Assembly: GCA_021160575.1 (NCBI GenBank)
Contig: JAGHCH010000008.1
Span: 1-57,758 of the forward strand
Source of the DNA: Thermoproteota archaeon
GTDB lineage: Archaea > Thermoproteota > Methanomethylicia > Methanomethylicales > JAGHCH01
DNA: 57,758 bases
Reading direction: 5' to 3'
Part shown: in pieces, positions 7,495 through 17,734 of the stretch
How the letters are laid out: each line of letters opens with the position of its first letter
Numbering within the stretch: position 1 is the stretch's first letter
The notes under the pieces: model-generated
The model's database searches: none
The model's input: only the letters and a program-made list of their open reading frames with translations
Told to the model about the DNA's origin: nothing
Translations under genes and position numbers: made by a program

Positions 7495-8163
7495 GTGAAA
7501 CGCGGAGCTCTCAGGAAGTGGAGGCGGCTGGCGAAAATTACTGCTTTAGCTGGACTGGCTGTCTTCGGGCTGAAAGCCCCTGTACTCTGGGTGCCCTTGG
7601 CGATGTATGGAGTAGGCCTCGTCTACAGCTGGTTTTCGGAGAGAAGCGGTGTGAATCGCGGGAAACGTGACGCTTCGAGGGATCTTAGAAAGCTAAGAAA
7701 CCTCTTTGTCAAGAGATTCGCTAGCGGCTCTCCAAGTTGGGGAGTTCTACGAGCTGTTACAGTTGAGTTCTACGAGCCGGGAGTGGAGTCCCCTTGCATT
7801 GTTGTCAGAGATTGCAGGGGAGGGTTACTTGGGCTAGGCTGCCTGACAGTGAGAACCCGTGGCTCTAGGGATTTCATGGAAGGTGTTTGTGACGCAGCAT
7901 CAAGGCTTGGAGTGAAATTCACCTCTACTGTTGACTATAGCGTTGAGGAGCCCATGACATACCTCATAGTGCGGGTGCATCAGCCGCTTGAGGGAGTTGA
8001 AGCGGAGCGCGCCATGGTTCATGCGGTTTCAGAGGGGCTGCTCACCTTGATAGCCGCCATCTACTCGCAGTGCCCAGAAGCCGATGTTGAGGTGCTGAGG
8101 GGACGGCAGCTTGAGAAGCTTGTGGAGGGCTTGATCTATGGCAGGCTTAGAGCGGAGGAGTAG
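7495..8163 (+). CDS. membrane-anchor module (2 TM plus soluble domain) matching the N-terminal third of the HerA/CedB-like ATPase at 36996
   Basis: Basic N-terminus, then ITALAGLAVFGLKAPVLWVPLAMYGVGLVYSWF (2 TM), then a soluble domain of about 150 aa. This is the same layout as residues 1-200 of the 603-aa protein. It overlaps the next gene by 26 nt. Confidence 0.55.
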   Translation: MKRGALRKWRRLAKITALAGLAVFGLKAPVLWVPLAMYGVGLVYSWFSERSGVNRGKRDASRDLRKLRNLFVKRFASGSPSWGVLRAVTVEFYEPGVESPCIVVRDCRGGLLGLGCLTVRTRGSRDFMEGVCDAASRLGVKFTSTVDYSVEEPMTYLIVRVHQPLEGVEAERAMVHAVSEGLLTLIAAIYSQCPEADVEVLRGRQLEKLVEGLIYGRLRAEE

Positions 8164-9484
8164 AAGCCGCCTAGCCTTTAAGGTCTGCGATGAAATCTCT
8201 TGGATAGCCGAGGCAGCTGTGAAAGGGGTTGTCGGCATCTTCGGAGGAGAGCGGCGCGAGTTTACACTTGCTTTGGTGGAGGAGCTTTGCAAGGAGAATA
8301 GGGACTGCGTGGTGGTTTGCTGTGATCAGCGATTCCTCCAGCTGGGAGTGCGCTATAGTAGGTTTAGAGTCGCGAGGCTCGGTGTTAATGCGTCGCTCAA
8401 CCCCTTTAAGCCAGTTGGAGAAGTCGACCCCGAAGACTATGCGGTCATGCTGGTGGAGCTGCTAATGGAACTTCTAGACCTAGATCAACTGCAGGCGAGG
8501 TACTTGCTAAGGGCTCTCAGGAAGCTTTACGAAGGTGAGCGGCTGGACCCTTCGGTGGAGGAGGTTGACGACGCCCTACTCGCGGTTGAAGCGGAGATCA
8601 CTGCTAGAGAGCTCTTCAAGCTTGAGGCTGTGAGGGGGTTGTTGGAGGAGCTCTCCACTGGAGGCTTGGCTGCAGTATTCTCCAGCTGCTCCCCCATCTC
8701 TGAGGAAGAACTCCTAAGCAAGCCGTCGATACTGGATCTCTCTCAGATTCCTGGAGCTAGGTTTAAGGCGCTGGCTGCAGCGCTGACTCTGCTCAAAAAG
8801 CTTCTTCTTAGGAGATCACTATCCTTTATCATGGATGAGGCAGCTTTCGTCTTCTCGCCCGGTGGAAGGCGGACGAGGAAACACTGCCTCCTTGAACTGC
8901 TTGATGGACAGGCAGTGAGGGGAGGAGCAGTTCTACTTGGTTTAGAGCCCAGTGAGTTCTCCGTTGACGTCTATGCTCGCTGTGCAGTCAAGGTGTTCAC
9001 CAAGCCTCTCAGCATAGGGAGTGGGAGGAACTTCAATGAACTTACTCCACCATCGCTGCCTCTGCACTCGGGAGAAGCGCTGGTGGTCTCGGAGGGTCAG
9101 CAAATTTCCTTAGTTAGGTTTAAGGTTAGGGAGAGCCTCCTCACCGAGGAGGAGCTTGCAGAGGAGCTTAGGATACCTAGAGAGTGGCTTCCTCGGAGAA
9201 CGGGAAGGAGGAGCCTCCTCCAGCGGATTTTAGGAGACCGCTTCCTAGCAGAAGAGGCCTACAAGCTACTATGCTTCCTCAGAGGGAATAGAGCGCCCTA
9301 CAACGGCTTAAAGGGGTTCTCCAATCTCCCCGACCAACTCTTCGAAGGCATCCTCAGAGCGCTTCTCAGACACAAGCTGATTGCAAGCTACTTCGATGAC
9401 AAGGGGATCCGCTGGTTTGTGGTCACCGACCTCGGAGAGCAGGCAGCCGACGAGTACTCCGAGAAGAGGGGAGGCGATGGCTGA
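8138..9484 (+). CDS. HerA/FtsK/VirB4-superfamily (DUF87-like) ATPase homologue with degenerate Walker A
   Basis: Colinear with 36996..38807. GIFGGERREFTLALVEEL aligns with AIFGATGSGKTTTAATILVKL; SLNPF with VLNPF; ILDLSQIPG with VVDLSNLGD; SFIMDEAAFVF with VIVVEEASNIM; LHSGEALVVSEG with LSPGEALVVSPS. The GK[ST] lysine is absent. Confidence 0.65.
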   Translation: MAGLERRSRSRLAFKVCDEISWIAEAAVKGVVGIFGGERREFTLALVEELCKENRDCVVVCCDQRFLQLGVRYSRFRVARLGVNASLNPFKPVGEVDPEDYAVMLVELLMELLDLDQLQARYLLRALRKLYEGERLDPSVEEVDDALLAVEAEITARELFKLEAVRGLLEELSTGGLAAVFSSCSPISEEELLSKPSILDLSQIPGARFKALAAALTLLKKLLLRRSLSFIMDEAAFVFSPGGRRTRKHCLLELLDGQAVRGGAVLLGLEPSEFSVDVYARCAVKVFTKPLSIGSGRNFNELTPPSLPLHSGEALVVSEGQQISLVRFKVRESLLTEEELAEELRIPREWLPRRTGRRSLLQRILGDRFLAEEAYKLLCFLRGNRAPYNGLKGFSNLPDQLFEGILRALLRHKLIASYFDDKGIRWFVVTDLGEQAADEYSEKRGGDG

Positions 9485-9828
9485 TGAGCCATGTGAGGTG
9501 GATCTCGGAGCACGCGGTGAGATGGTACATTGGTAGGGTTGGAGGAGCTTTCCGCGTCGCGGTGGTTGAGCTTGTTGAGAAGGAGGATGGCACAAGGCTG
9601 GTGGTGAGGAAGGTGCAAGAGATCAGGAAGCGTGGGAGCACGAGGGAGGTTTACAGAGAGGTCTACTCGCTGGGCTACTTCAAGGAGATCTTGGAGGCCG
9701 AGAGGGCGCTCTTGAGCTTGGCGTCCTCCAGTGGTGTCGAGGAGAAACTTCTGCAAGCGCTCAGCCACTTGAGCTCCGCGCTTCACGCGCTGAAAAGTGA
9801 GGAGAGGAGGGGAGGTGAGGATCTGTGA
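9484..9828 (+). CDS. hypothetical protein (operon member)
   Basis: 114-aa ORF whose start codon begins at the final stop-codon base of the upstream gene (1-nt overlap at 9484, ATGA-type junction) and whose stop overlaps the radA GTG start. No motif recognised. Confidence 0.5.
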   Translation: MSHVRWISEHAVRWYIGRVGGAFRVAVVELVEKEDGTRLVVRKVQEIRKRGSTREVYREVYSLGYFKEILEAERALLSLASSSGVEEKLLQALSHLSSALHALKSEERRGGEDL

Positions 9829-10772
9829 ACTTGAAGCTTGAGGATCTTCCAGGTGTTGGTGAGGCTACAGCTCAGAAGTTAAGGAAGGCAGGAATACTTT
9901 CCGTGGAGGATCTTGCAGCTCTCTCAGCAAGGGAGATTGCTCAGAGAGTTGAGGGGTTATCCGAGGATAGGGCTTTCAGCCTTGCGAAAGAGGCACGCAG
10001 GCGGCTAGGAATAGGCATCTACACAGCAAAGCAGTACTTGGAGAAGCGTAGAAGTCAGCCGAAGCTCTCCACGGGCATTAGAAGCTTGGATGAACTGCTT
10101 AGAGGTGGACTTGAGCCGGGAATCACTGAGCTTATTGGAGGCTATGGCACTGGCAAGACGCAGCTATGCCTTCAGCTCTGCGTTACAGTGCAGCTTCCAC
10201 CAGAGAAAGGAGGGCTCTCAGGCAAGGCCTTCTTCATAGACACTGAGCACACCTTCTCCCCAGATAGGATACCAGCTATAGCTCAGCGCTTTGAACTCGA
10301 CGGTGACAGTGCCCTCGAAAACGTGCTGGCAACTTATGCTGTAAACACAGATCACCAAATGGAGCTGGTGCATGAAGCCGCGCAGTATGTGAAGAGGGAG
10401 AATGTGAAGCTAATCATCATCGACAGCTTAACAGCGCACTTCCGCAGCGAGTTCCCGGGAAGGGAGAACCTTGTAGCTAGGCAGCAGAAGCTGAACGCCT
10501 TGATCCACCAGCTCATTAGGCTCAGCATGATCTACGGCGTCGTCGTGGTGGTTACAAACCAGATTTTGGATATCCCGGAGTGCTTTCCGGGGATGAAGCC
10601 GTCTAAGCCCGCTGGAGGAAACATCGTGGCCCATGGATGTACCTTCAGGCTCTGGCTGGAGAGATCCAAGGACCTCACCAAGATCACCATCCTAGACTCT
10701 CCAAAGCATCCCAGAGCCTCAACATTGGTGAAGCTGACGGAGGAGGGCGTCGTTGATGCAGATGCCTCCTAG
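9825..10772 (+). CDS. radA: DNA repair and recombination protein RadA
   Basis: N-terminal HhH LEDLPGVGEATAQKLRKAGI. Walker A GGYGTGKTQL. FIDTEHTFSPDRI, HQMELV, IIIDSLTAHFRSEFPGRENLVARQQKLN, VVVVTNQI and KPAGGNIVAHG are colinear with RadA/Rad51. Confidence 0.92.
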   Translation: MNLKLEDLPGVGEATAQKLRKAGILSVEDLAALSAREIAQRVEGLSEDRAFSLAKEARRRLGIGIYTAKQYLEKRRSQPKLSTGIRSLDELLRGGLEPGITELIGGYGTGKTQLCLQLCVTVQLPPEKGGLSGKAFFIDTEHTFSPDRIPAIAQRFELDGDSALENVLATYAVNTDHQMELVHEAAQYVKRENVKLIIIDSLTAHFRSEFPGRENLVARQQKLNALIHQLIRLSMIYGVVVVVTNQILDIPECFPGMKPSKPAGGNIVAHGCTFRLWLERSKDLTKITILDSPKHPRASTLVKLTEEGVVDADAS

Positions 10773-11061
10773 GGGCAGTGCGTGGCTGCGTAGATGCATG
10801 ATAAGGGTTGGAGATGTGCGCGAGGTTATCGAGGGAGAGCTGTGGATCGTCGAGGGAAGGAGAGAGCTGGGAGATCAGGATAGGCGCTACTTCGTTTTTC
10901 GGAGGATTGTGGGGGGAAGGGAAGTCTTCACATGCTCTTGCCAGGATCCGACGAAGAGGTTCTCCTCAAGGAGAAGCAGGTTGACGTGTAGCCATATAGG
11001 GGCAGTTTTGATCTATAGGAGGATGAAGGAAAATGCTGGTCTTCGGAATACCAGTGCTTGA
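10753..11061 (+). CDS. SWIM zinc-finger protein
   Basis: CSCQDPTKRFSSRRSRLTCSHIGAV fits the CxCx(n)CxH SWIM signature. Overlaps radA by 20 nt and the next gene by 29 nt. Confidence 0.7.
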   Translation: MMQMPPRGSAWLRRCMIRVGDVREVIEGELWIVEGRRELGDQDRRYFVFRRIVGGREVFTCSCQDPTKRFSSRRSRLTCSHIGAVLIYRRMKENAGLRNTSA

Positions 11062-11656
11062 CCAGGTGGTTAGCAGCGCTAGGGTCGTGGTCATCTATGG
11101 AGAGGCTGGAGCAGGCAAAACCACCTTGGCTTTTCAAGCTCTCCTCACCACCCTCGCAGAGGGCGGAGCAGGGCTACTAGCGTTGAGCGAATCAGCCGTA
11201 GCGGATAGGCTTGCTGACATGGCTGGAGAGCAGTGGGAAAGTGTTGCTGAGAGGATCTACATCTGCGAATTAAAGAGGCTCTCAGACTTGGAGGAGCTCG
11301 TTGAAGTAGCTGGAGAACTTGGTGACTTGAGGATGGTTGTAGTGGATGGCGTGGATAGGATCTATAGGGGAGCTATAGGCGACTTTGAAAAGAACGTGGT
11401 TGTAAGTAGAGTGCTTAATGAGCAACTCTCTCGTTTAAGGGCCCTAGCTTACGGCAGGGGGATAGATCTAGTTGAGACCGTCGGCATGACGGTGGGGAGA
11501 ACGCCAGTAGCTGGAGAGGTTGTCTTGAGGTATGCCGACCTAGCATTGGAGATCGCCGATCTGGGGGGAGATCTAAGGCTGTTGAAAATTACGAGGCCAT
11601 GCTGCTTGCTCGAAGCTAAGCTGAAGTTGGAGAGCCGCGGCTTCACCGCTCTCTAG
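11033..11656 (+). CDS. RadA paralogue (RadB/aRadC, KaiC-like core ATPase)
   Basis: Walker A VVVIYGEAGAGKTTLAFQALL and Walker B MVVVDGVD. Core-only length of 207 aa with no HhH domain. Confidence 0.75.
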   Translation: MLVFGIPVLDQVVSSARVVVIYGEAGAGKTTLAFQALLTTLAEGGAGLLALSESAVADRLADMAGEQWESVAERIYICELKRLSDLEELVEVAGELGDLRMVVVDGVDRIYRGAIGDFEKNVVVSRVLNEQLSRLRALAYGRGIDLVETVGMTVGRTPVAGEVVLRYADLALEIADLGGDLRLLKITRPCCLLEAKLKLESRGFTAL

Positions 11657-12554
11657 CAGTTATTCTTTCAACTATTTCTTTGAGAAGCTCTTCCGACGAC
11701 CTGCCGGGAGCTTCTATATCCTGGCACGGCTTCTTGAAAATTTTAGTAACAGCGTTTACTTGTTTCCCGTCGAACGTGCCAAAGCTTTCGACGAGTTTTC
11801 TCAAGAGGGAGCACTCATAATCCAAGTTCACTAGACCAGTGTAGTCAAAGAGAAACTCCACGGTTTCTGGAGGGATGGAGATCACGTCGTCTAGAGATGG
11901 GTTGAAGTCTCTAGGACTTGCCGCTAAGCCCCCAGCTTTGAGGATCTGTGAAAGCCGCCAAGCCTGCTCCCCTATGACGGGATGGTCGAGAATGCAGGAG
12001 GATAGTATGAGCAAGCCTAACCTCTCATGCTCACCTACATAGGAGGCATAGCCATAACGGGTCATGAGATCCTTTAGCCTTAAATCCAGTTTTTCGGCAT
12101 GAATGGAGAGGTTCACTGCCTTTGATGCTATATGCTCTGCTATTTCTGAGATTATAATAGGAGGCTTGATGGATACCCATCCACCCTCAAAACCCCCTAA
12201 AAGTGTTATGAAAACCAGCTTTTTGGAGAATCTCTGCGAGATATTGACATATAGGGAGCTGCGTAAAACCGAGAGATCCCTCCAAAGGACATCCGAAGCA
12301 AGAGAGGAACCCTTCTCGGTTAGAGCCATTACTAGCATGGGGTTGTCTTCAGCAGTGCATAGAACCCTTCTCTCTATGAGCCCGTATCGCTCCAGCAATA
12401 GGTAGAGATCTTCACCCACACGCTCCTTAAACTGCTCCACCGATGGAGTGTAGGCAGCTCCCCCAGCAGCGTAAATCCTCTTGACGAGCTGGTAGACGGG
12501 CTCTGGGTCGAGCCCCATCTTGCTGAAGATGAGGTTGAACTCGCCTATTGACAT
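11643..12554 (-). CDS. hypothetical protein
   Basis: 303-aa ORF with coding-like composition and no recognisable catalytic motif. The N-terminal region may be wHTH-like. Confidence 0.5.
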   Translation of the reverse strand: MSIGEFNLIFSKMGLDPEPVYQLVKRIYAAGGAAYTPSVEQFKERVGEDLYLLLERYGLIERRVLCTAEDNPMLVMALTEKGSSLASDVLWRDLSVLRSSLYVNISQRFSKKLVFITLLGGFEGGWVSIKPPIIISEIAEHIASKAVNLSIHAEKLDLRLKDLMTRYGYASYVGEHERLGLLILSSCILDHPVIGEQAWRLSQILKAGGLAASPRDFNPSLDDVISIPPETVEFLFDYTGLVNLDYECSLLRKLVESFGTFDGKQVNAVTKIFKKPCQDIEAPGRSSEELLKEIVERITARER

Positions 12555-12615
12555 CTGAGTACGCGCTCCAATCAGTGAAGAAGCAGCGCCTTGGATAAGC
12601 CTTTACCTTCGGAGG

Positions 12616-12624
12616 AAATATTAA
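12616..12624 (+). promoter_or_regulatory. TATA box for the ncRNA at 12647
   Basis: AAATATTAA centred about 27 nt upstream of the first G of the terminal helix, preceded by purine-rich GGAGG (BRE-like). Confidence 0.55.
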
Positions 12625-12646
12625 CCACCGTTGACTATATTATACT

Positions 12647-12858
12647 GGGGCACCCGCAGGAGGCAGTGATCTCTGCGGTTCTCAGTGCTTCCGGGCATCT
12701 GCCCGGAGATGCGGTGGCGGCTAAGGTCATCCTTATGATCTGCGACGCCCCGGGGCGCATAGGAAGCTCCGGAGGACGTTGGCGCTCAAGGTCACCTTCG
12801 GGATCAGTTGGAGTTCGGTAGTCAGCTGCCACCGCGCTGAGGCTCCTGCGGGTGCCCC
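12647..12858 (+). ncRNA. unclassified structured ncRNA of about 212 nt (SRP RNA / minimal RNase P RNA not confirmed)
   Basis: Perfect 16-bp terminal helix, 12647-12662 (GGGGCACCCGCAGGAG) with 12843-12858 (CUCCUGCGGGUGCCCC). Nested 6-bp helix 12681-12686/12836-12841. Hairpin 12690-12707. 11-bp helix 12711-12721 (GCGGUGGCGGC) with 12825-12835 (GCUGCCACCGC). Distal hairpins include 12724-12741. TATA box upstream and T-tract downstream. Both overlapping ORFs look non-coding. Confidence 0.7.
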
Positions 12859-12859
12859 C

Positions 12860-12868
12860 TTTCTTTTT
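12860..12868 (+). terminator. T-rich archaeal terminator (TTTCTTTTT)
   Basis: Oligo-T tract starting 2 nt after the closing helix of the ncRNA. Confidence 0.55.
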
Positions 12869-12901
12869 AAAGCTTTAACTTGTGTAGTTCATTGAGTTTC
12901 T

Positions 12902-13585
12902 TTGGAGGGGTTGAAGATAGTTCTGCGAATTGTAGTTGATGAGCGGGAGAAGGGCTCAGAGGTGCCCTCTTTCCTAAGGAGGATGGGAGTTTACTTGGTA
13001 TTTGCTCAGCTGGGCGTCGGGGATTACGTGATCTCGGAGAAGTGTGCTGTGGAGCGTAAGGAGGTAAGGGACTTCATGTCGTCCATCTTCAGTGGAAGGC
13101 TCTTCGACCAGGCGGGTAGGCTTGTGGAGCTCTATTCTAGGAGTGCTATCGTTGTGGAGGGGGACTTTAAGGGTCTTGAGAGCTATCTTGAAAAGCCTAA
13201 GGTGTTTTGGGGCGCAGTATCGTCGCTGATCGCCGATTATGGGGTCTCAGTGGTCTTCACGGGAGATGAGGAGGAGACGGCGATGCTTCTCTACGGCTTA
13301 GCGAAGAGGGAGCAGGAGGAGAAGGCTTTGAGGAGGGTGGTGGTGAAGAAGAGGCTTCCAAAGAAGAGCTTGAGGGAGCAGCAGCTTTACGTGCTTCAGA
13401 GCTTGCCGGGGATAGGGGCGACTTTAGCTGAGAGGCTGTTGGAGAAATTTGGCTCTCTAAGGGGTGTTTTCACGGCTTCTCCTGCCGAGCTTCGGCTTGT
13501 GAAGGGAATGACGTGGGAAAAAGCTGAGGAGCTGCACAAGCTCTTTAATGAAAAAGCTGGAGGAGACGAGGAACCCCTCATGTAG
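12902..13585 (+). CDS. xpf: short-form XPF/ERCC4 structure-specific endonuclease with C-terminal (HhH)2
   Basis: VVDEREKGSEV, GDYVIS and VERKEVRDF give the ERCC4 GDx(n)ERKxxxD signature. C-terminal LQSLPGIGATLAERLLEKFGSLRGVFTAS is an HhH motif. 227 aa with no helicase domain, as in the crenarchaeal short form. Confidence 0.88.
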   Translation: MEGLKIVLRIVVDEREKGSEVPSFLRRMGVYLVFAQLGVGDYVISEKCAVERKEVRDFMSSIFSGRLFDQAGRLVELYSRSAIVVEGDFKGLESYLEKPKVFWGAVSSLIADYGVSVVFTGDEEETAMLLYGLAKREQEEKALRRVVVKKRLPKKSLREQQLYVLQSLPGIGATLAERLLEKFGSLRGVFTASPAELRLVKGMTWEKAEELHKLFNEKAGGDEEPLM

Positions 13586-13969
13586 GCGTAGAGCATACTT
13601 GAGAAAGGGAATTCTTAAGGATGAACTGCCAGATGATGTTCTGTGATGCGGCATTCACGTAGTTTGCAGACTATGGTGTGAGGTCTATAGGATCCCCTAA
13701 CTCCTCAGCCTTTGCCGCATGCTATAAAGACTAAGGGATGACTCATAGTGGTAGTGCATCTAGCCTTGACTTGGGACTACGATAAGCTTCGCCTGCGATG
13801 CTTGGCCTCCACCTCTAATCTTTTCTTTCCCATAAGTTAGCTTAGTACTGCGTTGTTGCTTTTGAAGGCTATTGCTAATTTATTCTTTGGTAGACAAACA
13901 TTTTATTTCCGCTGGGGAAGTCTTAGATTGTATAGGAGCTGTCTTGGTGTACTTGGAGGTGTTGGAGAC

Positions 13970-14536
13970 ATGAGCTTTTGGGAAGACTTCTGGGAGAGCA
14001 GGCGTAGAAGATGGTCGATTTTTAGGGAGTTTGAGCGCCTTGACCGGATGTTCGAGGACATGATTAGGGAGATTTTCAGCGAGTTTCCCTTTCCTGAAAA
14101 GCTTGTTAGCGAGCGGGAGCTGCCAGATGGCACTAGGATTAGAAGCGTGGGGCCCATAATCTACGGCTACTCAGTGACCATAGGTCCTGATGGTAAGCCT
14201 ATCATCAGGGAATTCGGCAACATCAGACCTAAAGAAGGGTTGTTGAGAGCTGAGGAGTATAGGGAGCCATTAGTGGATGTCATTGAGGGCGACAAGGTGG
14301 TGCAAGTAGTTGCTGAGTTGCCTGGCGTTGACAAGAGCGACATCAACCTTCAGGCGACGGAGGATAAGCTGATCATTTCGGTGGACAAGGATAAGCGGAA
14401 GTACTACAAGGAGGTGGATCTGCCAGCAAAGGTGGATCCAAAGAGCGCCAAGGCCAACTACAAGAACGGAGTCCTCGAGGTCACCTTGAACAAGCTTGAA
14501 GCAGAAAAGAAGGGTGTGAAAATCAACGTAGAGTAG
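13970..14536 (+). CDS. hsp20: small heat-shock protein (Hsp20 / alpha-crystallin family)
   Basis: REPLVDVIEGDKVVQVVAELPGVDKSDINL...YKEVDLPAKVDPKSAKANYKNGVLEVTLNK is a classic ACD. I prefer ATG 13970 (GGAGGTG SD 8-14 nt upstream) over the TTG at 13853. Confidence 0.88.
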   Translation: MSFWEDFWESRRRRWSIFREFERLDRMFEDMIREIFSEFPFPEKLVSERELPDGTRIRSVGPIIYGYSVTIGPDGKPIIREFGNIRPKEGLLRAEEYREPLVDVIEGDKVVQVVAELPGVDKSDINLQATEDKLIISVDKDKRKYYKEVDLPAKVDPKSAKANYKNGVLEVTLNKLEAEKKGVKINVE

Positions 14537-15516: not shown

Positions 15517-16205
15517 CCAGCTTGCTTTAGAGCCCAGATGAGGGGAGGAGCCAAGGCCACGAGGAAGGGGATCTCGGTGGAGTATGTCCAGGTGAACCAA
15601 ATGACGGCGGCTGTTAGAGGCAGGTTTTGTGCGCCAGTGGGCAAGAGGAAGAATTGGCTGAAAAGCCATACACCAAAGCCCACGATTAGGCTGCCCACCA
15701 ATAGCCCAGCTGAAGCAGCGAAGATGTAGGAGCGCCACCTCTCGGCAACGATGGACACTATGAATGATAGCGCTAAGGCAACGATGCAAGCACCGCCGAG
15801 TATGAGAGCTGTCTCGAAGTCGAGGAGAGCTGCTTGGAGTAAGATGATGACGGCTGCTATTGGGAGGAGCTGAACCCCTATGGAGGCAGGGACAGCGCGC
15901 CTAGCTTCGAGTCGAGAGAGGTAGCCGATGAGGTAGAAGCAGATGAAGTTGGCGGGTACTCCCACAGTTAGGCTTAGAAAGGCGTTGCCGTGGATCAACA
16001 TATCTGAGATGAAAATGCCTATGGCAGCTCCTACAGCGCCCACTAAGGGACCAAAGGCCACCGCGAAGGCTGCTGGGATCACTACAGGCGGCCAGAACCT
16101 TACCACGCCGACTATTGGGGCGAAGATGCCGAGATAGGTGAAGTAGCCTACAACAGCGTATAGGGCGGCGTTAAGCGATGAAAGGGTGATGAAAGCTGCG
16201 CGCAC
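15498..16205 (-). CDS. ECF-type vitamin/precursor transporter S-component-like membrane protein
   Basis: About 6 TM segments. VRFWPPVVIPAAFAVAFGPLVGAVGAAIGIFISDML resembles the R-F-P...GP..G...G..i.D motif of ECF S components. Its stop overlaps the pantoate kinase start by 19 nt. Confidence 0.55.
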   Translation of the reverse strand: MRAAFITLSSLNAALYAVVGYFTYLGIFAPIVGVVRFWPPVVIPAAFAVAFGPLVGAVGAAIGIFISDMLIHGNAFLSLTVGVPANFICFYLIGYLSRLEARRAVPASIGVQLLPIAAVIILLQAALLDFETALILGGACIVALALSFIVSIVAERWRSYIFAASAGLLVGSLIVGFGVWLFSQFFLLPTGAQNLPLTAAVIWFTWTYSTEIPFLVALAPPLIWALKQAGWRYAS

Positions 16206-16381
16206 TCCCGCTTCTCTCCTCGACCAGCCAATGGCTGTATTCCTTAAAAGGCTTACCTACAGATACATAGAAGTTGATAGTACTATACAATAAGATACGT
16301 ATAACTATAGATGTCTATGTATAGAGAACTGCCGAAGAAGAATTACAGCGTCCCCATTATCTCCGGATAGAGAGAGGAGAA

Positions 16382-16452
16382 CCCGTAGTTCAGCGGCAGG
16401 TCGCCCAGTTCGCAACTGAGGAGCTGGAGAGATCAAATCTCTCGGCCCACCA
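16382..16452 (+). pseudogene. tRNA-like 3' fragment (D arm to CCA; anticodon position reads CGC, Ala-like) lacking a 5' acceptor strand
   Basis: UAGUUCAGCGGCAGGUC (D-arm-like, U:U mismatch). CCCAG-UUCGCAA-CUG(A)GG (anticodon-arm-like with a bulge). GAGAG-AUCAAAU-CUCUC (T arm with A54). GGCCCAC-CA. No complement to the 3' acceptor strand lies upstream. A T5 tract follows at 16465-16469. Confidence 0.4.
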
Positions 16453-16696
16453 CTTCTCAGTCAGTTTTTGCCATAAGAGACCACGTCTACTGGCAGGCTT
16501 TGATGCAGCCTCTGTAGACGCTGAGATCAACTTTCACCTTGTATGCTCTGTTAAAGCGCCTTCCCATGCCGCGAGTGAGATTCATGGAGGCGCCAACAGG
16601 ACAAAGCATTGTGTACCATCCTCTACCATATTTAGTGAAGATTTCTTAGATGGTGAAAGACAGCGATTCTTCAATAAATAAAGAAACTCTCTAAGA

Positions 16697-16717
16697 ACGT
16701 CGCCCTGACGCGGCGAA
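16697..16717 (+). repeat. 21-nt direct repeat, orphan copy of the tRNA-Val anticodon arm
   Basis: ACGTCGCCCTGACGCGGCGAA is identical to 16830-16850 inside tRNA-Val(GAC). The flanks are unrelated to tRNA. Confidence 0.9.
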
Positions 16718-16772
16718 AAACTCTTAACCAAATGCTCTTTAAAGTAAGAGCTGGGCTGGCCCTCAAGGCCGC

Positions 16773-16882
16773 GGGCACTTCTAGGGAGCTATCCCTAGAA
16801 GCCGTAGCGGTCGTCTAGCCTGGTCTAGGACGTCGCCCTGACGCGGCGAAGGTCCCCGGTTCAAATCCGGGCCGGCCCACCA
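16773..16882 (+). tRNA. tRNA-Val(GAC) with a 31-nt non-canonical intron between positions 4 and 5; CCA encoded
   Basis: Exon 1 is GGGC (16773-16776), the intron is 16777-16807 and contains the perfect hairpin CUUCUAGGGA-GCUA-UCCCUAGAAG, and exon 2 is 16808-16882. The spliced product is GGGCCGG-UC-GUCU-AGCCUGGUCUA-GGAC-G-UCGCC-CUGACGC-GGCGA-AGGUC-CCCGG-UUCAAAU-CCGGG-CCGGCCC-A-CCA, a perfect cloverleaf. Its D arm is nearly identical to the tRNA-Arg at 49975. An alternative exon 1, GGGCUGG at 16753-16759, is possible. Confidence 0.7.
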
Positions 16883-16890
16883 ATCACAAT

Positions 16891-16912
16891 GTTCATTAAA
16901 GCTTTAATGAAC
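16891..16912. repeat. perfect 22-bp palindrome GTTCATTAAAGCTTTAATGAAC
   Basis: 10-bp arms around a 2-nt centre, 9 nt downstream of the tRNA-Val CCA. Confidence 0.85.
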
Positions 16913-17014
16913 GATTTCCTCATTGAGAGAGATTGATACTCGGAATGTGACCCATGAGAATAATAGTTGTCAGATGGTAAATACAGAGGCGAAAGATCTT
17001 AGATTGTAGCATAA

Positions 17015-17607
17015 AATAGCTCTGCATATCCTAAGCTTAACGCCAGCGAGCTTGCTAAGGTTCTTGAAGAAATAAGAATAATGCCAATGCCAGCACCATT
17101 GTACGAGGCGGTTAAGCCAATTACGCTTGAAGAGTTTTGGGAGCTTGCTCACAAAGAGCATCTGTCTAAGATTGTCCCGGAGATTTTCCTTCCAGCTAAG
17201 CTTCCGCAAGGATTCACTCATATCAGGATATAGTATAAGCCCCCTGTTATACTCATCTCTTTCAGCGACCGACCAGTGCAGACTTATGAGGAGGCTAATC
17301 TAACGATTGAGATCTCCATGTTGAAGGTGGATGCGGTTCCATCTTTAGAGGAGCTGAAGGCCCTCTATGAAAATGACTCCAAGACTTATGTCATGTCGAT
17401 TGATGGATGGCTGTAATCTATGAAGATGCGCCTTGCATTGATCCATTATATGTTGAAACTTTCAAAACAATTCTTTGCCACACTTCATGCATCTGGATTA
17501 AGGGTGAGAGCCGTTATTACTACTATGGAGTCACCGTGTGCCCATCGCTATCGGTGGACGACTTAGTTAGAATTATTAAAAGCCTAAAACCTTTCAAGAC
17601 GACCTAA
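17015..17607 (+). pseudogene. decayed gene (DUF4367-like C-terminus) with one in-frame TAG and one frameshift
   Basis: ...LPAKLPQGFTHIRI-TAG(17231)-YKPPVILISFSDRPVQTYEEANLTIEI...YVMSIDGW, then a frame change at the GATGGATGG repeat near 17405, then AVIYEDAPC...WIKGESRYYYYGVTVCPSLSVDDLVRIIKSLKP. The three pieces read as one protein. The antisense ORF 16970..17221 is a shadow. Confidence 0.55.
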
Positions 17608-17734
17608 AAATTACTTGCCTTCAGAGACGACGTCAAACGTCTTGAGGCGCCTTTTAGCGCGTGTTTTCAGGAGTGTGTCTTTGTAAAGCTATTTATGAGT
17701 GGAAGGTGCTAGGCTGTTTCGATGATGGCTTTAT

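Follow-up and report, generated by a model that had tools for sequence, protein, structure and literature searches.

The DNA analysed here is a stretch of 57.7 kb (the window), in which a 303-aa orphan gene (11643–12554, − strand) and an xpf gene (12902–13585, + strand) flank a 212-nt segment of the + strand (12647–12858) that has 66% G+C and both of its ends in a perfect 16-bp helix. The resulting RNA gene stands out as a G+C-rich island (66% as compared to about 52%). The xpf gene, which starts 33 nt past the T-tract described below, encodes an ERCC4 nuclease with HhH domains (Pfam ERCC4, E = 1.5e-25, plus HHH_5) and has about 300 homologs. The orphan gene is divergently transcribed and is present only in the clade that carries the RNA. 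An earlier note on this DNA had placed a structured RNA between an orphan gene and xpf, and this placement holds on both sides, the one neighbour being lineage-restricted and the other carrying the ERCC4 and HhH domains. The orphan product belongs to no family in Pfam or NCBIfam and has no match among PDB sequences; a search of 5.8 billion proteins returned only homologs that are 85–90% identical, an exhaustive HMMER search of 1.84 billion representatives added one weak match (E = 5.5e-5), and the AlphaFold model (pLDDT 34) was too poor for a fold search. The orphan gene and the RNA do occur together, but all genomes in which this is observed are closely enough related for everything to be syntenic.

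Direct reading of the flanks revealed a TATA-like box, AAATATTAA (12616–12624), with its centre ∼27 nt 5′ of position 12647 and a purine-rich GGAGG 5′ of it, and an oligo-T tract, TTTCTTTTT (T3CT5, 12860–12868), which follows the folded unit after a single C; the RNA gene as drawn here spans 12647–12868 (+ strand). Oligo-T is a termination signal for archaeal RNA polymerase. Both elements had been called in the earlier note, as a TATA box at −27 and a T-tract terminator, and both are found as described. A 25-nt promoter block, CGGAGGAAATATTAACCACCGTTGA, is invariant in all variants covering it; the A/T-rich stretch that comes next changes in sequence among variants but is always 12 nt long. 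At the terminator, T runs are kept and the sequence drifts (TTTCATTTT in L018, TTGTTTTTT in L027, and TTCGTTTTTT in L001, three of the relatives introduced below). These signals predict a gene with its own promoter and its own terminator, from which a discrete + strand transcript of ∼215–220 nt would be made. Past the T-tract and ahead of the xpf start codon, A/T-rich boxes can be read, which suggest that xpf has a promoter of its own.

The segment folds with a minimum free energy of −125.6 kcal/mol on the + strand (z = −6.3; 0 of 200 shuffles folded equally well), as compared to −109.2 on the − strand, and at 80°C its z is −5.6 against plain mononucleotide shuffles, which are a cruder control than that used for z = −6.3. 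When all 220-nt intervals of the 57.7 kb were ranked, the RNA was the top folding outlier at −5.3 sd after G+C correction, and the second-best lay at −3.3 sd. Seven G-U pairs, together with A-to-G and C-to-U substitutions, are tolerated only by an RNA of the + strand, and a covariance model of the RNA (see below) yields 259 bits for the + strand as compared to 30 for the − strand. The promoter and terminator also face in the + direction, and the functional strand is the + strand. With this folding outlier, the invariant promoter block and the retained T-tract, the description of an independently transcribed, highly structured RNA in the earlier note is supported.

The scaffold of the fold is built of three nested helices. 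The outermost, P1, pairs GGGGCACCCGCAGGAG (12647–12662), a 16-mer with no other occurrence in the window, with its exact reverse complement at 12843–12858 and so closes the 212-nt unit; all 16 pairs are invariant in the five full-length variants, and they form with a probability of 1.0 at 37°C and 0.95 at 80°C. A side hairpin, H1 (12663–12676), with a GCAG/CUGC stem and an invariant UGAUCU loop, separates P1 from P2 (12680–12686, paired with 12836–12842), a helix of 6–7 bp with U-G at both ends; in L027, the U-G at one end is U-A and the last pair is lost. A second side hairpin, H2 (12689–12708), has a G+C-rich stem of 7–8 bp, in which one U-A is U-G in L027, and a tetraloop that varies freely (AUCU, ACUU, CUCU); its pair probability at 80°C is 0.93–0.98 across five variants. 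It precedes P3 (12711–12722, paired with 12824–12835), whose 12 pairs, one of them G-U, are all invariant and have pair probabilities of at least 0.94 at 80°C. A perfect 16-bp terminal helix and nested helices with inserted hairpins had been proposed beforehand, and both are present, the inner helices being 6–7 bp and 12 bp (one G-U) and each following a side hairpin.

The RNA is found at the same locus, with the gene order radA, radB-like gene, orphan gene (− strand), RNA, xpf, and hsp20, in five further sequence variants, and all variants that bear it come from one clade of uncultured Methanomethylicota. The RNA copies are 93–98% identical, whereas flanking codon third positions are 62–75% and the downstream spacer 64% identical; between the window and L027, identity is 94.8% for the RNA, 88.8% for radA, 82.3% for xpf, and 64% for the RNA–xpf spacer. 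Variable columns are concentrated in unpaired sequence (15 of 90, as compared to 5 of 122 paired columns; Fisher p = 0.003), and of the five changes in paired columns, three preserve the pair as G-U or U-A and two fall on the last pair of a helix. Among relatives that are all at least 93% identical, no pair has changed on both sides. Compensatory double changes are lacking because the relatives are too close, and the fold therefore rests on thermodynamics and on the positions of substitutions, not on covariation; the scaffold is well supported. The RNA gene is real and under strong purifying selection. A coding role was considered and rejected: a 1-nt indel lies within both overlapping ORFs (12591–12821 on the + strand and 12635–12832 on the − strand), and the region is therefore non-coding.

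A 212-bp unit bounded by perfect 16-bp inverted repeats could also be a DNA-level element, i.e., a miniature inverted-repeat transposable element or a palindromic site, and the many palindromes (GATC three times, CCCCGGGG, and CTCCGGAG), as well as the short metagenome contigs that end inside or at the RNA (L001, L002, L003, L029, and L030), would agree with that. However, the unit is present once in the 57.7-kb window and once per related locus of 12–21 kb, occupies the same site in all variants, and has no target-site duplication at its ends. It is moreover better conserved than the flanking genes, the opposite of what a decaying mobile element would display, its own promoter and terminator are conserved, and the seven G-T “pairs” and strand-specific substitutions are sensible only for an RNA, so that we give a DNA element next to no credence.

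Seven alignment rows, representing the six variants, went into the covariance model, R1, which identified one copy per related locus and had no match in the outgroup and other loci. A metagenome scan with the pattern CATAGGANGCTCCGGAGGA returned 19 loci, of which only two were genuine (L018, and L023, which is the same as L001); the remainder were chance matches, several of them from gut metagenomes. The pattern AAGGTCNTCCTTATGATCTG did not find the RNA in GTDB species representatives, giving two chance bacterial matches, and two patterns run on viral contigs gave five and zero matches, with none of the five being significant with the RNA model. In the public data that could be reached, the RNA occurs only in a single clade of genus rank, made up of uncultured Methanomethylicota (Verstraetearchaeota) that were sampled at hydrothermal sites. 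In the nearest outgroup (RadA 65% identical), the radA operon is conserved and the radB-like gene is followed by a 264-nt A/T-rich spacer and a PadR gene, with the RNA, the orphan gene, and xpf all absent from that locus; a folding scan of the outgroup loci found no comparable outlier, the best being a guide-RNA pair. A distribution this narrow is unusual for the RNA of an essential ribonucleoprotein.

The surroundings of xpf bear on whether the RNA could instead be a cis-acting 5′ leader of that gene, a ligand- or protein-sensing attenuator in which P1 and the T-tract would form a conditional terminator. The RNA lies on the same strand as xpf and 33 nt upstream of it in all six variants, its strong helix is followed directly by the T-tract, and its invariant, multi-branched distal domain is aptamer-like. 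On the other hand, with a perfect 16-bp P1 as part of a 35-bp rod, an anti-terminator fold is not obvious, and no alternative fold opening P1 was found in the pair probabilities of the full-length variants. The RNA–xpf spacer is only 64% conserved and contains indels, and the A/T-rich boxes ahead of xpf would fit a separate, leaderless xpf transcript. Outside the clade, the closest XPF homologs are 48% identical, and their xpf genes lie directly after cbiQ (52-nt gap) with no RNA element ahead of them. A leader function is considered unlikely, although some read-through from the RNA into xpf, 33 nt downstream, may occur.

Beyond P3, a distal domain of 101 nt (12723–12823) holds nearly all of the invariant unpaired sequence of the RNA. 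Its first part, module A (12723–12742), reads AAGGUC(A/U)UCCUUAUGAUCUG and has a single variable position, A in the window and U in all relatives; a local hairpin of this module is favoured only with the window’s A. Hairpin B (12742–12783), as drawn in the RNAalifold consensus, is an irregular 14-bp stem with an invariant 9-nt loop, GCAUAGGA(A/G). It includes both the GC palindrome CGCCCCGGGGCG and the string AUAGGAAGCUCCGG, likened to the CR-I of RNase P, that the earlier note had picked out. All three substitutions in this register hit a wobble pair or unpaired positions, and the upper stem has a probability of 1.0 in four variants and of 0.45 in L027, in which the palindrome hairpin competes with it (probability 0.54). 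Module C (12788–12807), AAGGUCACCUUCGGGAUCAG, has a possible cUUCGg tetraloop and either folds locally or pairs through its GGAUCA with 12736–12741. The domain ends in a variable single-stranded linker, UUGGAGUUCGGUAGUC (12808–12823), in which 5 of 16 columns vary, a 1-nt indel at alignment column 171 included; the interval 12807–12823 is the most variable part of the RNA. Unpaired segments are of two kinds, the loops of H1, module A, hairpin B, and module C being invariant, whereas the H2 loop and the linker at 12808–12823 vary freely.

How the distal parts are connected differs among variants. The 20-mers at 12723–12742 and 12788–12807 resemble each other, as had been noticed before, but their formation of two separate hairpins is favoured only in the window’s sequence, with pair probabilities of 0.86 and 0.80, as compared to 0.13 or less in four other full-length variants. 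Three other variants favour a long-range helix between 12736–12741 and 12801–12806 (probability 0.77), and in L027, where the picture is mixed, no distal helix exceeds 0.54. The UGAUCU hexamer of the H1 loop is repeated at 12736–12741 and both copies are complementary to GGAUCA at 12801–12806. In these predictions the distal fold is ambiguous, and at least two arrangements fit the data equally well.

Invariant unpaired motifs, one of them repeated (UGAUCU twice, UCCUUAU, ACCUUCGG, and GCAUAGGA), might indicate a base-pairing regulator or a sponge, with loops that pair with or mimic other RNAs or that titrate an RNA-binding protein. By our own reading, a possible likeness to the 3′ tail of 16S rRNA is seen in UCACCU and UCCUUA, and there are several GGAGG and AGGA strings. 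However, the motifs can be explained as intramolecular contacts, namely CAUAGG (12758–12763) with CUUAUG (12732–12737) and UGAUCU with GGAUCA, and the Shine-Dalgarno-like strings are mostly buried in helices. We regard such a regulator as rather unlikely, and a structural or protein-binding RNA as the preferred reading.

The Rfam search that the earlier note had proposed was made with all 4227 families of Rfam 15, among which are RNaseP_arch, RNaseP-T, and Archaea_SRP. Run over the whole window at gathering thresholds, it returned no match to the RNA, and even at E ≤ 10 there was no family match on 12500–13000 (501 nt) or 12640–12870 (231 nt); the related and outgroup loci gave only tRNAs and chance matches at gathering thresholds. 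Matches of snoRNA type fell on the − strand only and were at chance level (8–15 bits, E = 0.4–8). Box C/D and H/ACA guide RNAs were also rejected by direct reading, there being no UGAUGA and no ACA trinucleotide in the RNA, and K-turn, C/D, H/ACA, T-loop, and tRNA-like readings of the distal domain were dropped by eye because their defining motifs are absent. Literature searches on Methanomethylicia or Verstraetearchaeota turned up nothing relevant for RNase P, SRP, or novel RNAs.

RNase P RNA is the catalytic subunit that trims tRNA 5′ leaders, and the RNA could in principle be a radically reduced or remodelled version of it, smaller than and unlike the type T of Thermoproteaceae. Its 212-nt size and long P1 resemble type T, in which P1 is ∼20 bp in Caldivirga and Vulcanisaeta (PMC3579882), and the two share an archaeal (Thermoproteota) host, a length of ∼200 nt, a G+C content above that of the genome, and an architecture of nested helices with side hairpins. 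Type T was also missed by older covariance models (Chan, Brown and Lowe 2012, PMC3579882). The terminal helix, side hairpin, and enclosing helix loosely parallel P1/P2, P3, and P4, and AUAGGAAGCUCCGG and UCCGGGC recall CR-I in our reading. However, published type T RNAs score 117–169 bits with their own model, random sequence reaching at most ∼17 bits (PMC3579882), and keep conserved nucleotides in P4, P2/P4, and P15/P2; the present RNA has neither such a score (>117 bits) nor these nucleotides, and the RNase P models (RF00373 and RF02357) have no match in the 231-nt region, even at E ≤ 10. Where the topology would put P4, the helix is UCUCAGU/GCUGAGG, reached through a GGU or GAU linker and not an A-rich J3/4, and the universally conserved P4-type nucleotides are absent from the corresponding places. 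The pairing of the CR-I-like AGCUCC with GGAGUU that the earlier note had put forward (alignment columns 119–124 with 164–169) does not survive comparison: it is intact only in the window and carries a mismatch in five of the six relatives covering the site. The fold compatible with all six variants has the CR-I-like string instead as the loop and 3′ strand of the local hairpin B, outside any conserved pairing, and the segment that would have to serve as CR-V, 12807–12823, is the most variable and contains the indel. An RNase P identity is accordingly highly improbable.

Similar reasoning applies to a shortened, divergent SRP (7S) RNA that would carry SRP54 and SRP19 in co-translational protein targeting. 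As in archaeal SRP RNA, the 5′ and 3′ ends are paired, a long rod leads to a branched distal end, and a single-copy gene of housekeeping type has its own promoter and oligo-T terminator; the rod, the two end-proximal side hairpins, and the distal domain loosely recall the Alu domain, helix 5, and the S domain, and GGAAGC, in our reading, the 3′ side of helix 8. However, no SRP model matched at E ≤ 10, and the RNA is ∼90 nt shorter than archaeal SRP RNAs. None of its loops (UGAUCU, the variable AUCU, an 8-nt loop, the 9-nt GCAUAGGAA, and UUCG) is a GNAR tetraloop, as expected in helix 8 (the SRP54 site) and helix 6 (the SRP19 site) of an SRP RNA. Where helix 8 has symmetric and asymmetric internal loops, hairpin B has an uninterrupted upper stem of 7 bp, and no helix-8 features could be read, in keeping with the earlier note, which had likewise reported these motifs as missing. 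The side hairpins leave the rod at different points and not from a single helix 2/3/4 junction, and a conserved loop-loop contact is precluded by the free variation of the H2 loop. We find this reading barely credible. The suggestion of a reduced or divergent RNase P or SRP RNA thus loses its footing, there being no Rfam match at E ≤ 10 and the CR-I/P4-like pairing being broken in relatives. With Rfam scans covering the window and the related and outgroup loci, neither identity is supported, and it is very unlikely that the RNA is one of the lineage’s universal RNAs, RNase P or SRP, remodelled with no conserved motif surviving. Because the RNA belongs to no recognisable family, the third option in the earlier note, a new RNA class, fits best.

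OLE, ROOL, and GOLLD are large orphan structured RNAs of bacteria. Like these and raiA (PMC10861870), the present RNA is large, highly structured, and strongly conserved, its role cannot be read from its sequence, and its self-complementary loop motifs could mediate RNA–RNA contacts; unlike them, it is archaeal and known from one clade in six near-identical variants, whereas they are bacterial, widespread, and rich in covariation, and it has no motif in common with them. Parallels in setting also come from a group of archaeal RNAs, which share with it a G+C-rich island, a structured RNA with no assigned function, a thermophilic archaeon as host, a promoter and terminator of their own, and a narrow taxonomic range. 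These are HgcA–HgcG, the G+C-rich orphan RNAs of hyperthermophiles that Klein, Misulovin and Eddy reportedly obtained in 2002 from base-composition screens. The Hgc families in Rfam have no sequence or structure match to the present RNA, which is larger, more elaborately branched, and from another phylum-level lineage.

The structured RNA gene is real and is of no described family. Our main reading, to which we assign a probability of roughly one half, is that this single-copy chromosomal gene, with its own promoter and terminator, encodes a stable, heavily base-paired non-coding RNA of ∼215 nt with a trans-acting structural or protein-binding role; judged from sequence and predicted structure, action in trans in such a capacity is most likely. 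Transcription of the + strand would begin from the RNA’s own TATA box and stop at the oligo-T tract. P1 (16 bp), P2 (6–7 bp), and P3 (12 bp) could stack coaxially into a rod of ∼35 bp that would lock the 5′ and 3′ ends together, with the simple hairpins H1 and H2 projecting from its 5′ strand. This rod may serve as a heat-stable, exonuclease-resistant handle, and the distal domain (12723–12823) would then be the working end. The RNA would form the core of a small ribonucleoprotein acting in trans, rather than serve as an xpf leader or as an antisense regulator.

To our knowledge, large, elaborately folded, and near-invariant RNAs are few, and almost all known ones serve translation, protein targeting, or RNA processing; we know of very few such new RNAs from archaea since RNase P type T. 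The RNA is now defined by its sequence, predicted ends, a scaffold model, and a covariance model, with sampling from one clade and six near-identical variants. Although no relatives can be recognised, it changes more slowly than the RadA of the same genomes. Either it performs an important job that is peculiar to a little-known lineage within the Methanomethylicota, or a universal RNA has here taken an unprecedented form. Should the genome encode both canonical RNAs elsewhere, it would be the first member of a new class of large archaeal structured RNAs and would head a lineage-specific ribonucleoprotein.

The window contains a structured RNA gene that is genuine, had not been described before, and has a very narrow known distribution. 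Positions 12647-12662 (GGGGCACCCGCAGGAG) are the exact reverse complement of 12843-12858, and this 16-mer has no further occurrence within the window. The 212 nt bounded by, and including, these inverted repeats (12647-12858, + strand) have a G+C content of 66%, as compared to an average of ∼52% in the surrounding region. The + strand RNA is predicted to fold at −125.6 kcal/mol (z = −6.3 against dinucleotide shuffles), the − strand being less stable (−109.2 kcal/mol). Across all 220-nt segments of the 57.7 kb, corrected for G+C, it was the top folding outlier (−5.3 sd; runner-up −3.3), and at 80°C its z was −5.6 against mononucleotide shuffles. Direct reading bore out the earlier note, which had proposed an independent structured RNA, in its coordinates, in the length, in the helices, and in the pair of look-alike 20-mers at 12723-12742 and 12788-12807.

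Five further sequence variants, 93-98% identical to that of the window, were recovered by a metagenome pattern scan and via neighbouring proteins: L018, L030, L033 (= L034 = L035, from MAG GCA_054474275.1), L027 (= L028, from MAG GCA_054474235.1), and the halves L029 and L001 from one JGI sample. Five short metagenome or Logan contigs (L001, L002, L003, L029, and L030) have one of their ends inside the RNA or precisely where it stops; these are probably assembly breaks, caused either by the inverted repeats or by the passage from a near-invariant segment into spacers that vary between strains. For the 19-mer of the scan, an identical 21-mer was found in eight contigs (L010, L012, L014, L015, L021, L024, L025, and L026), at least 3 of which are labelled human gut metagenome; beyond this match they do not resemble the RNA significantly, and the 21-mer presumably comes from a conserved segment of a bacterial gene, unrelated to the RNA.

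Between the window and L027, identity is 94.8% for the RNA, 88.8% for radA, 82.3% for xpf, 81.1% for the orphan gene, 62-75% for codon third positions, 64% for the RNA-xpf spacer, and 34% for the xpf-hsp20 spacer. Only 20 of 213 alignment columns in the RNA vary, and under the scaffold model these are 15 of 90 unpaired versus 5 of 122 paired columns (Fisher p = 0.003). Three of the five paired-column changes retain the pair (U-A to U-G, C-G to U-G, and U-G to U-A), and the other two fall on the terminal pair of a helix. Replacement of A by G opposite U, and of C by U opposite G, can be tolerated in a + strand RNA and in no other, which points to the + strand as the functional one. No pair has changed on both sides; since helices never vary among such close relatives, covariation is uninformative rather than negative. 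A protein-coding reading was rejected because a 1-nt indel (column 171) falls within both ORFs overlapping the region. From the substitution pattern and this indel it follows that the RNA is non-coding and that purifying selection acts on it strongly. Together the data show a real, non-coding gene on the + strand, its RNA being both structured and constrained. A DNA element ranks last among five rival explanations, and a mobile one is disfavoured: each locus examined has a single copy, the site never differs, no target duplication flanks it, and the RNA is more conserved than the neighbouring genes.

A TATA-like box, AAATATTAA (12616-12624, + strand), is centred ∼27 nt upstream of 12647, and a T-tract, TTTCTTTTT (12860-12868, + strand), lies just downstream of the RNA. 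The 25-nt putative promoter block CGGAGGAAATATTAACCACCGTTGA is invariant among relatives, the A/T-rich 12 nt separating it from the first G are constant in length while drifting in sequence, and the T-tract appears in relatives as TTTCATTTT, TTGTTTTTT, or TTCGTTTTTT. The rival ranked second is that the RNA is a leader of xpf; A/T-rich boxes separate the T-tract from the start codon of xpf and make a promoter of its own plausible for that gene. Over 12860-12901 the T-tract merges into these boxes (TTTTTAAAG, CTTTAAC), 25-40 nt upstream of the xpf TTG start, and the RNA terminator and the next promoter may therefore overlap, with xpf possibly leaderless.

The scaffold has pair probabilities of at least 0.93 at 37°C in all five full-length variants, and P1, H2, and P3 reach this value at 80°C as well. 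Helices P1 (16 bp, 12647-12662/12843-12858), P2 (6-7 bp, 12680-12686/12836-12842), and P3 (12 bp with one G-U, 12711-12722/12824-12835) are predicted to stack end to end into a ∼35-bp rod carrying two hairpins on one side, namely H1 (12663-12676), with an invariant loop UGAUCU, and H2 (12689-12708), with a freely varying tetraloop. The predicted fold of the distal 101 nt (12723-12823) is less certain. Hairpin B (12742-12783), with a 9-nt loop, GCAUAGGA[A/G], is supported in a register that puts all three of its substitutions on a wobble pair or unpaired positions. Four variants have a firm upper stem in this hairpin; in L027 the stem falls to 0.45, in competition with the palindrome hairpin. 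In the window, whose A at 12729 is private, the two look-alike hairpins of the earlier note are favoured; in the other four variants they are not, and in three of these the 3′ halves pair together (12736-12741 with 12801-12806, probability 0.77), L027 being mixed. Both arrangements match the substitution data equally, with 99.5% of cells paired in each. The H1 loop is complementary to 12801-12806, as is CAUAGG in the hairpin B loop to CUUAUG in module A (12723-12742), all bases being invariant. Two copies of UGAUCU are present, one in the H1 loop and one in module A (12736-12741), each complementary to GGAUCA (12801-12806) in module C (12788-12807). With CCCCGGGG and CUCCGGAG in addition, the RNA has an unusual wealth of self-complementary motifs, and these could allow it to dimerise or to adopt alternative folds.

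Rfam 15 (4227 models) identified only three tRNAs over the window; on the RNA region at E ≤ 10, it was only unrelated families that matched, at chance level (7-15 bits). With this null result, and with the defining motifs and loops absent, the divergent RNase P or SRP RNA considered in the earlier note is not borne out, and remodelled forms of the two rank third and fourth among the rivals. Type T RNase P RNAs score 117-169 bits and retain the nucleotides that are universal in P4, P2/P4, and P15/P2 (PMC3579882). Here the helix in the P4 position lacks them, the string resembling CR-I forms the loop and 3′ strand of hairpin B, and no segment of the RNA varies more than the one where CR-V would lie. 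The AGCUCC/GGAGUU pairing proposed in the earlier note is mismatched in 5 of 6 relatives. Unlike SRP RNA, this RNA has no GNAR tetraloops, helix-8 internal loops, or helix 2/3/4 junction, and it is ∼90 nt too short. The genomic comparison for both readings covered loci of ∼20 kb. A guide RNA was rejected, as neither C/D boxes nor ACA are present.

The window is ordinary archaeal chromosome, with genes for thermosome, ribosomal protein S17e, ABCE1, Sua5, Cgi121, archaeosine TGT, a beta-CASP nuclease, and a Ski2-type helicase. One of its proteins shares a 90% cluster with a protein labelled Candidatus Methanomethylicia; the closest RadA outside the clade (65% identity) is labelled Candidatus Methanomethylicota, followed by those of Methanomethylicus and Methanosuratincola (59%). 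XPF identity steps from 89% directly to 48%, with no intermediate relatives among 5.8 billion proteins searched. On contigs that extend far enough, the gene order is radA, a 102-aa gene, radB-like, orphan (−), RNA, xpf, and hsp20. In the nearest outgroup (RadA 65%; L043, L045, L046, and L047) the radA operon is kept and followed by a 264-nt A/T-rich spacer and a PadR gene, and our covariance model of the RNA found no match at this equivalent locus. The window's operon (7495-11656) encodes 222-aa, 448-aa, and 114-aa proteins, RadA, a 102-aa protein, and a 207-aa RadB/KaiC-like ATPase; those of the outgroup (L043 7685-11841, L046 5267-8735, and L047 2495-5949; RadA identity 61-65%) are similar, with ∼250 aa, ∼520 aa, RadA, ∼95 aa, and a ∼210-aa ATPase. 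The proteins flanking RadA matched no Pfam or NCBIfam family. Elsewhere on L043, an intergenic stretch (13915-14120, − strand; z = −5.2) reads as an H/ACA-like hairpin with ACA and then a box C/D RNA (GAUGAUGA ... CUGA ... CUGAGC), with no Rfam match at gathering thresholds. At 15790-17734 of the window (1.9 kb), a simple ORF pass gave no ORF of at least 90 aa; small genes are called in the corresponding region of L033, and a tRNA-Val lies at 16808-16882, its alignment covering only positions 5-66 of the Rfam tRNA model. The 303-aa orphan gene (11643-12554, − strand) has a G+C of 0.44-0.47, below its surroundings, and its homologs are confined to the RNA-bearing clade, plus one weak 153-aa match (P0142, E = 5.5e-5). 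No family, fold, or usable structural model was obtained for its protein, the N-terminus of which resembles a winged helix by eye (LERYGLIERRV...LTEKG), unconfirmed by any profile.

We infer a trans-acting RNA with a structural or protein-binding role, and about half of our confidence in the overall statement hangs on this role. The ∼35-bp rod would be a handle resistant to heat and exonuclease, and the loops that stay invariant, in H1 and in the distal domain, would form the working surface. Of the five rivals to this reading, a base-pairing regulator or sponge carries the most weight. Known from sequence, and with no pair changed on both sides among its variants, the gene holds a tempered interest as a rare new large archaeal RNA.
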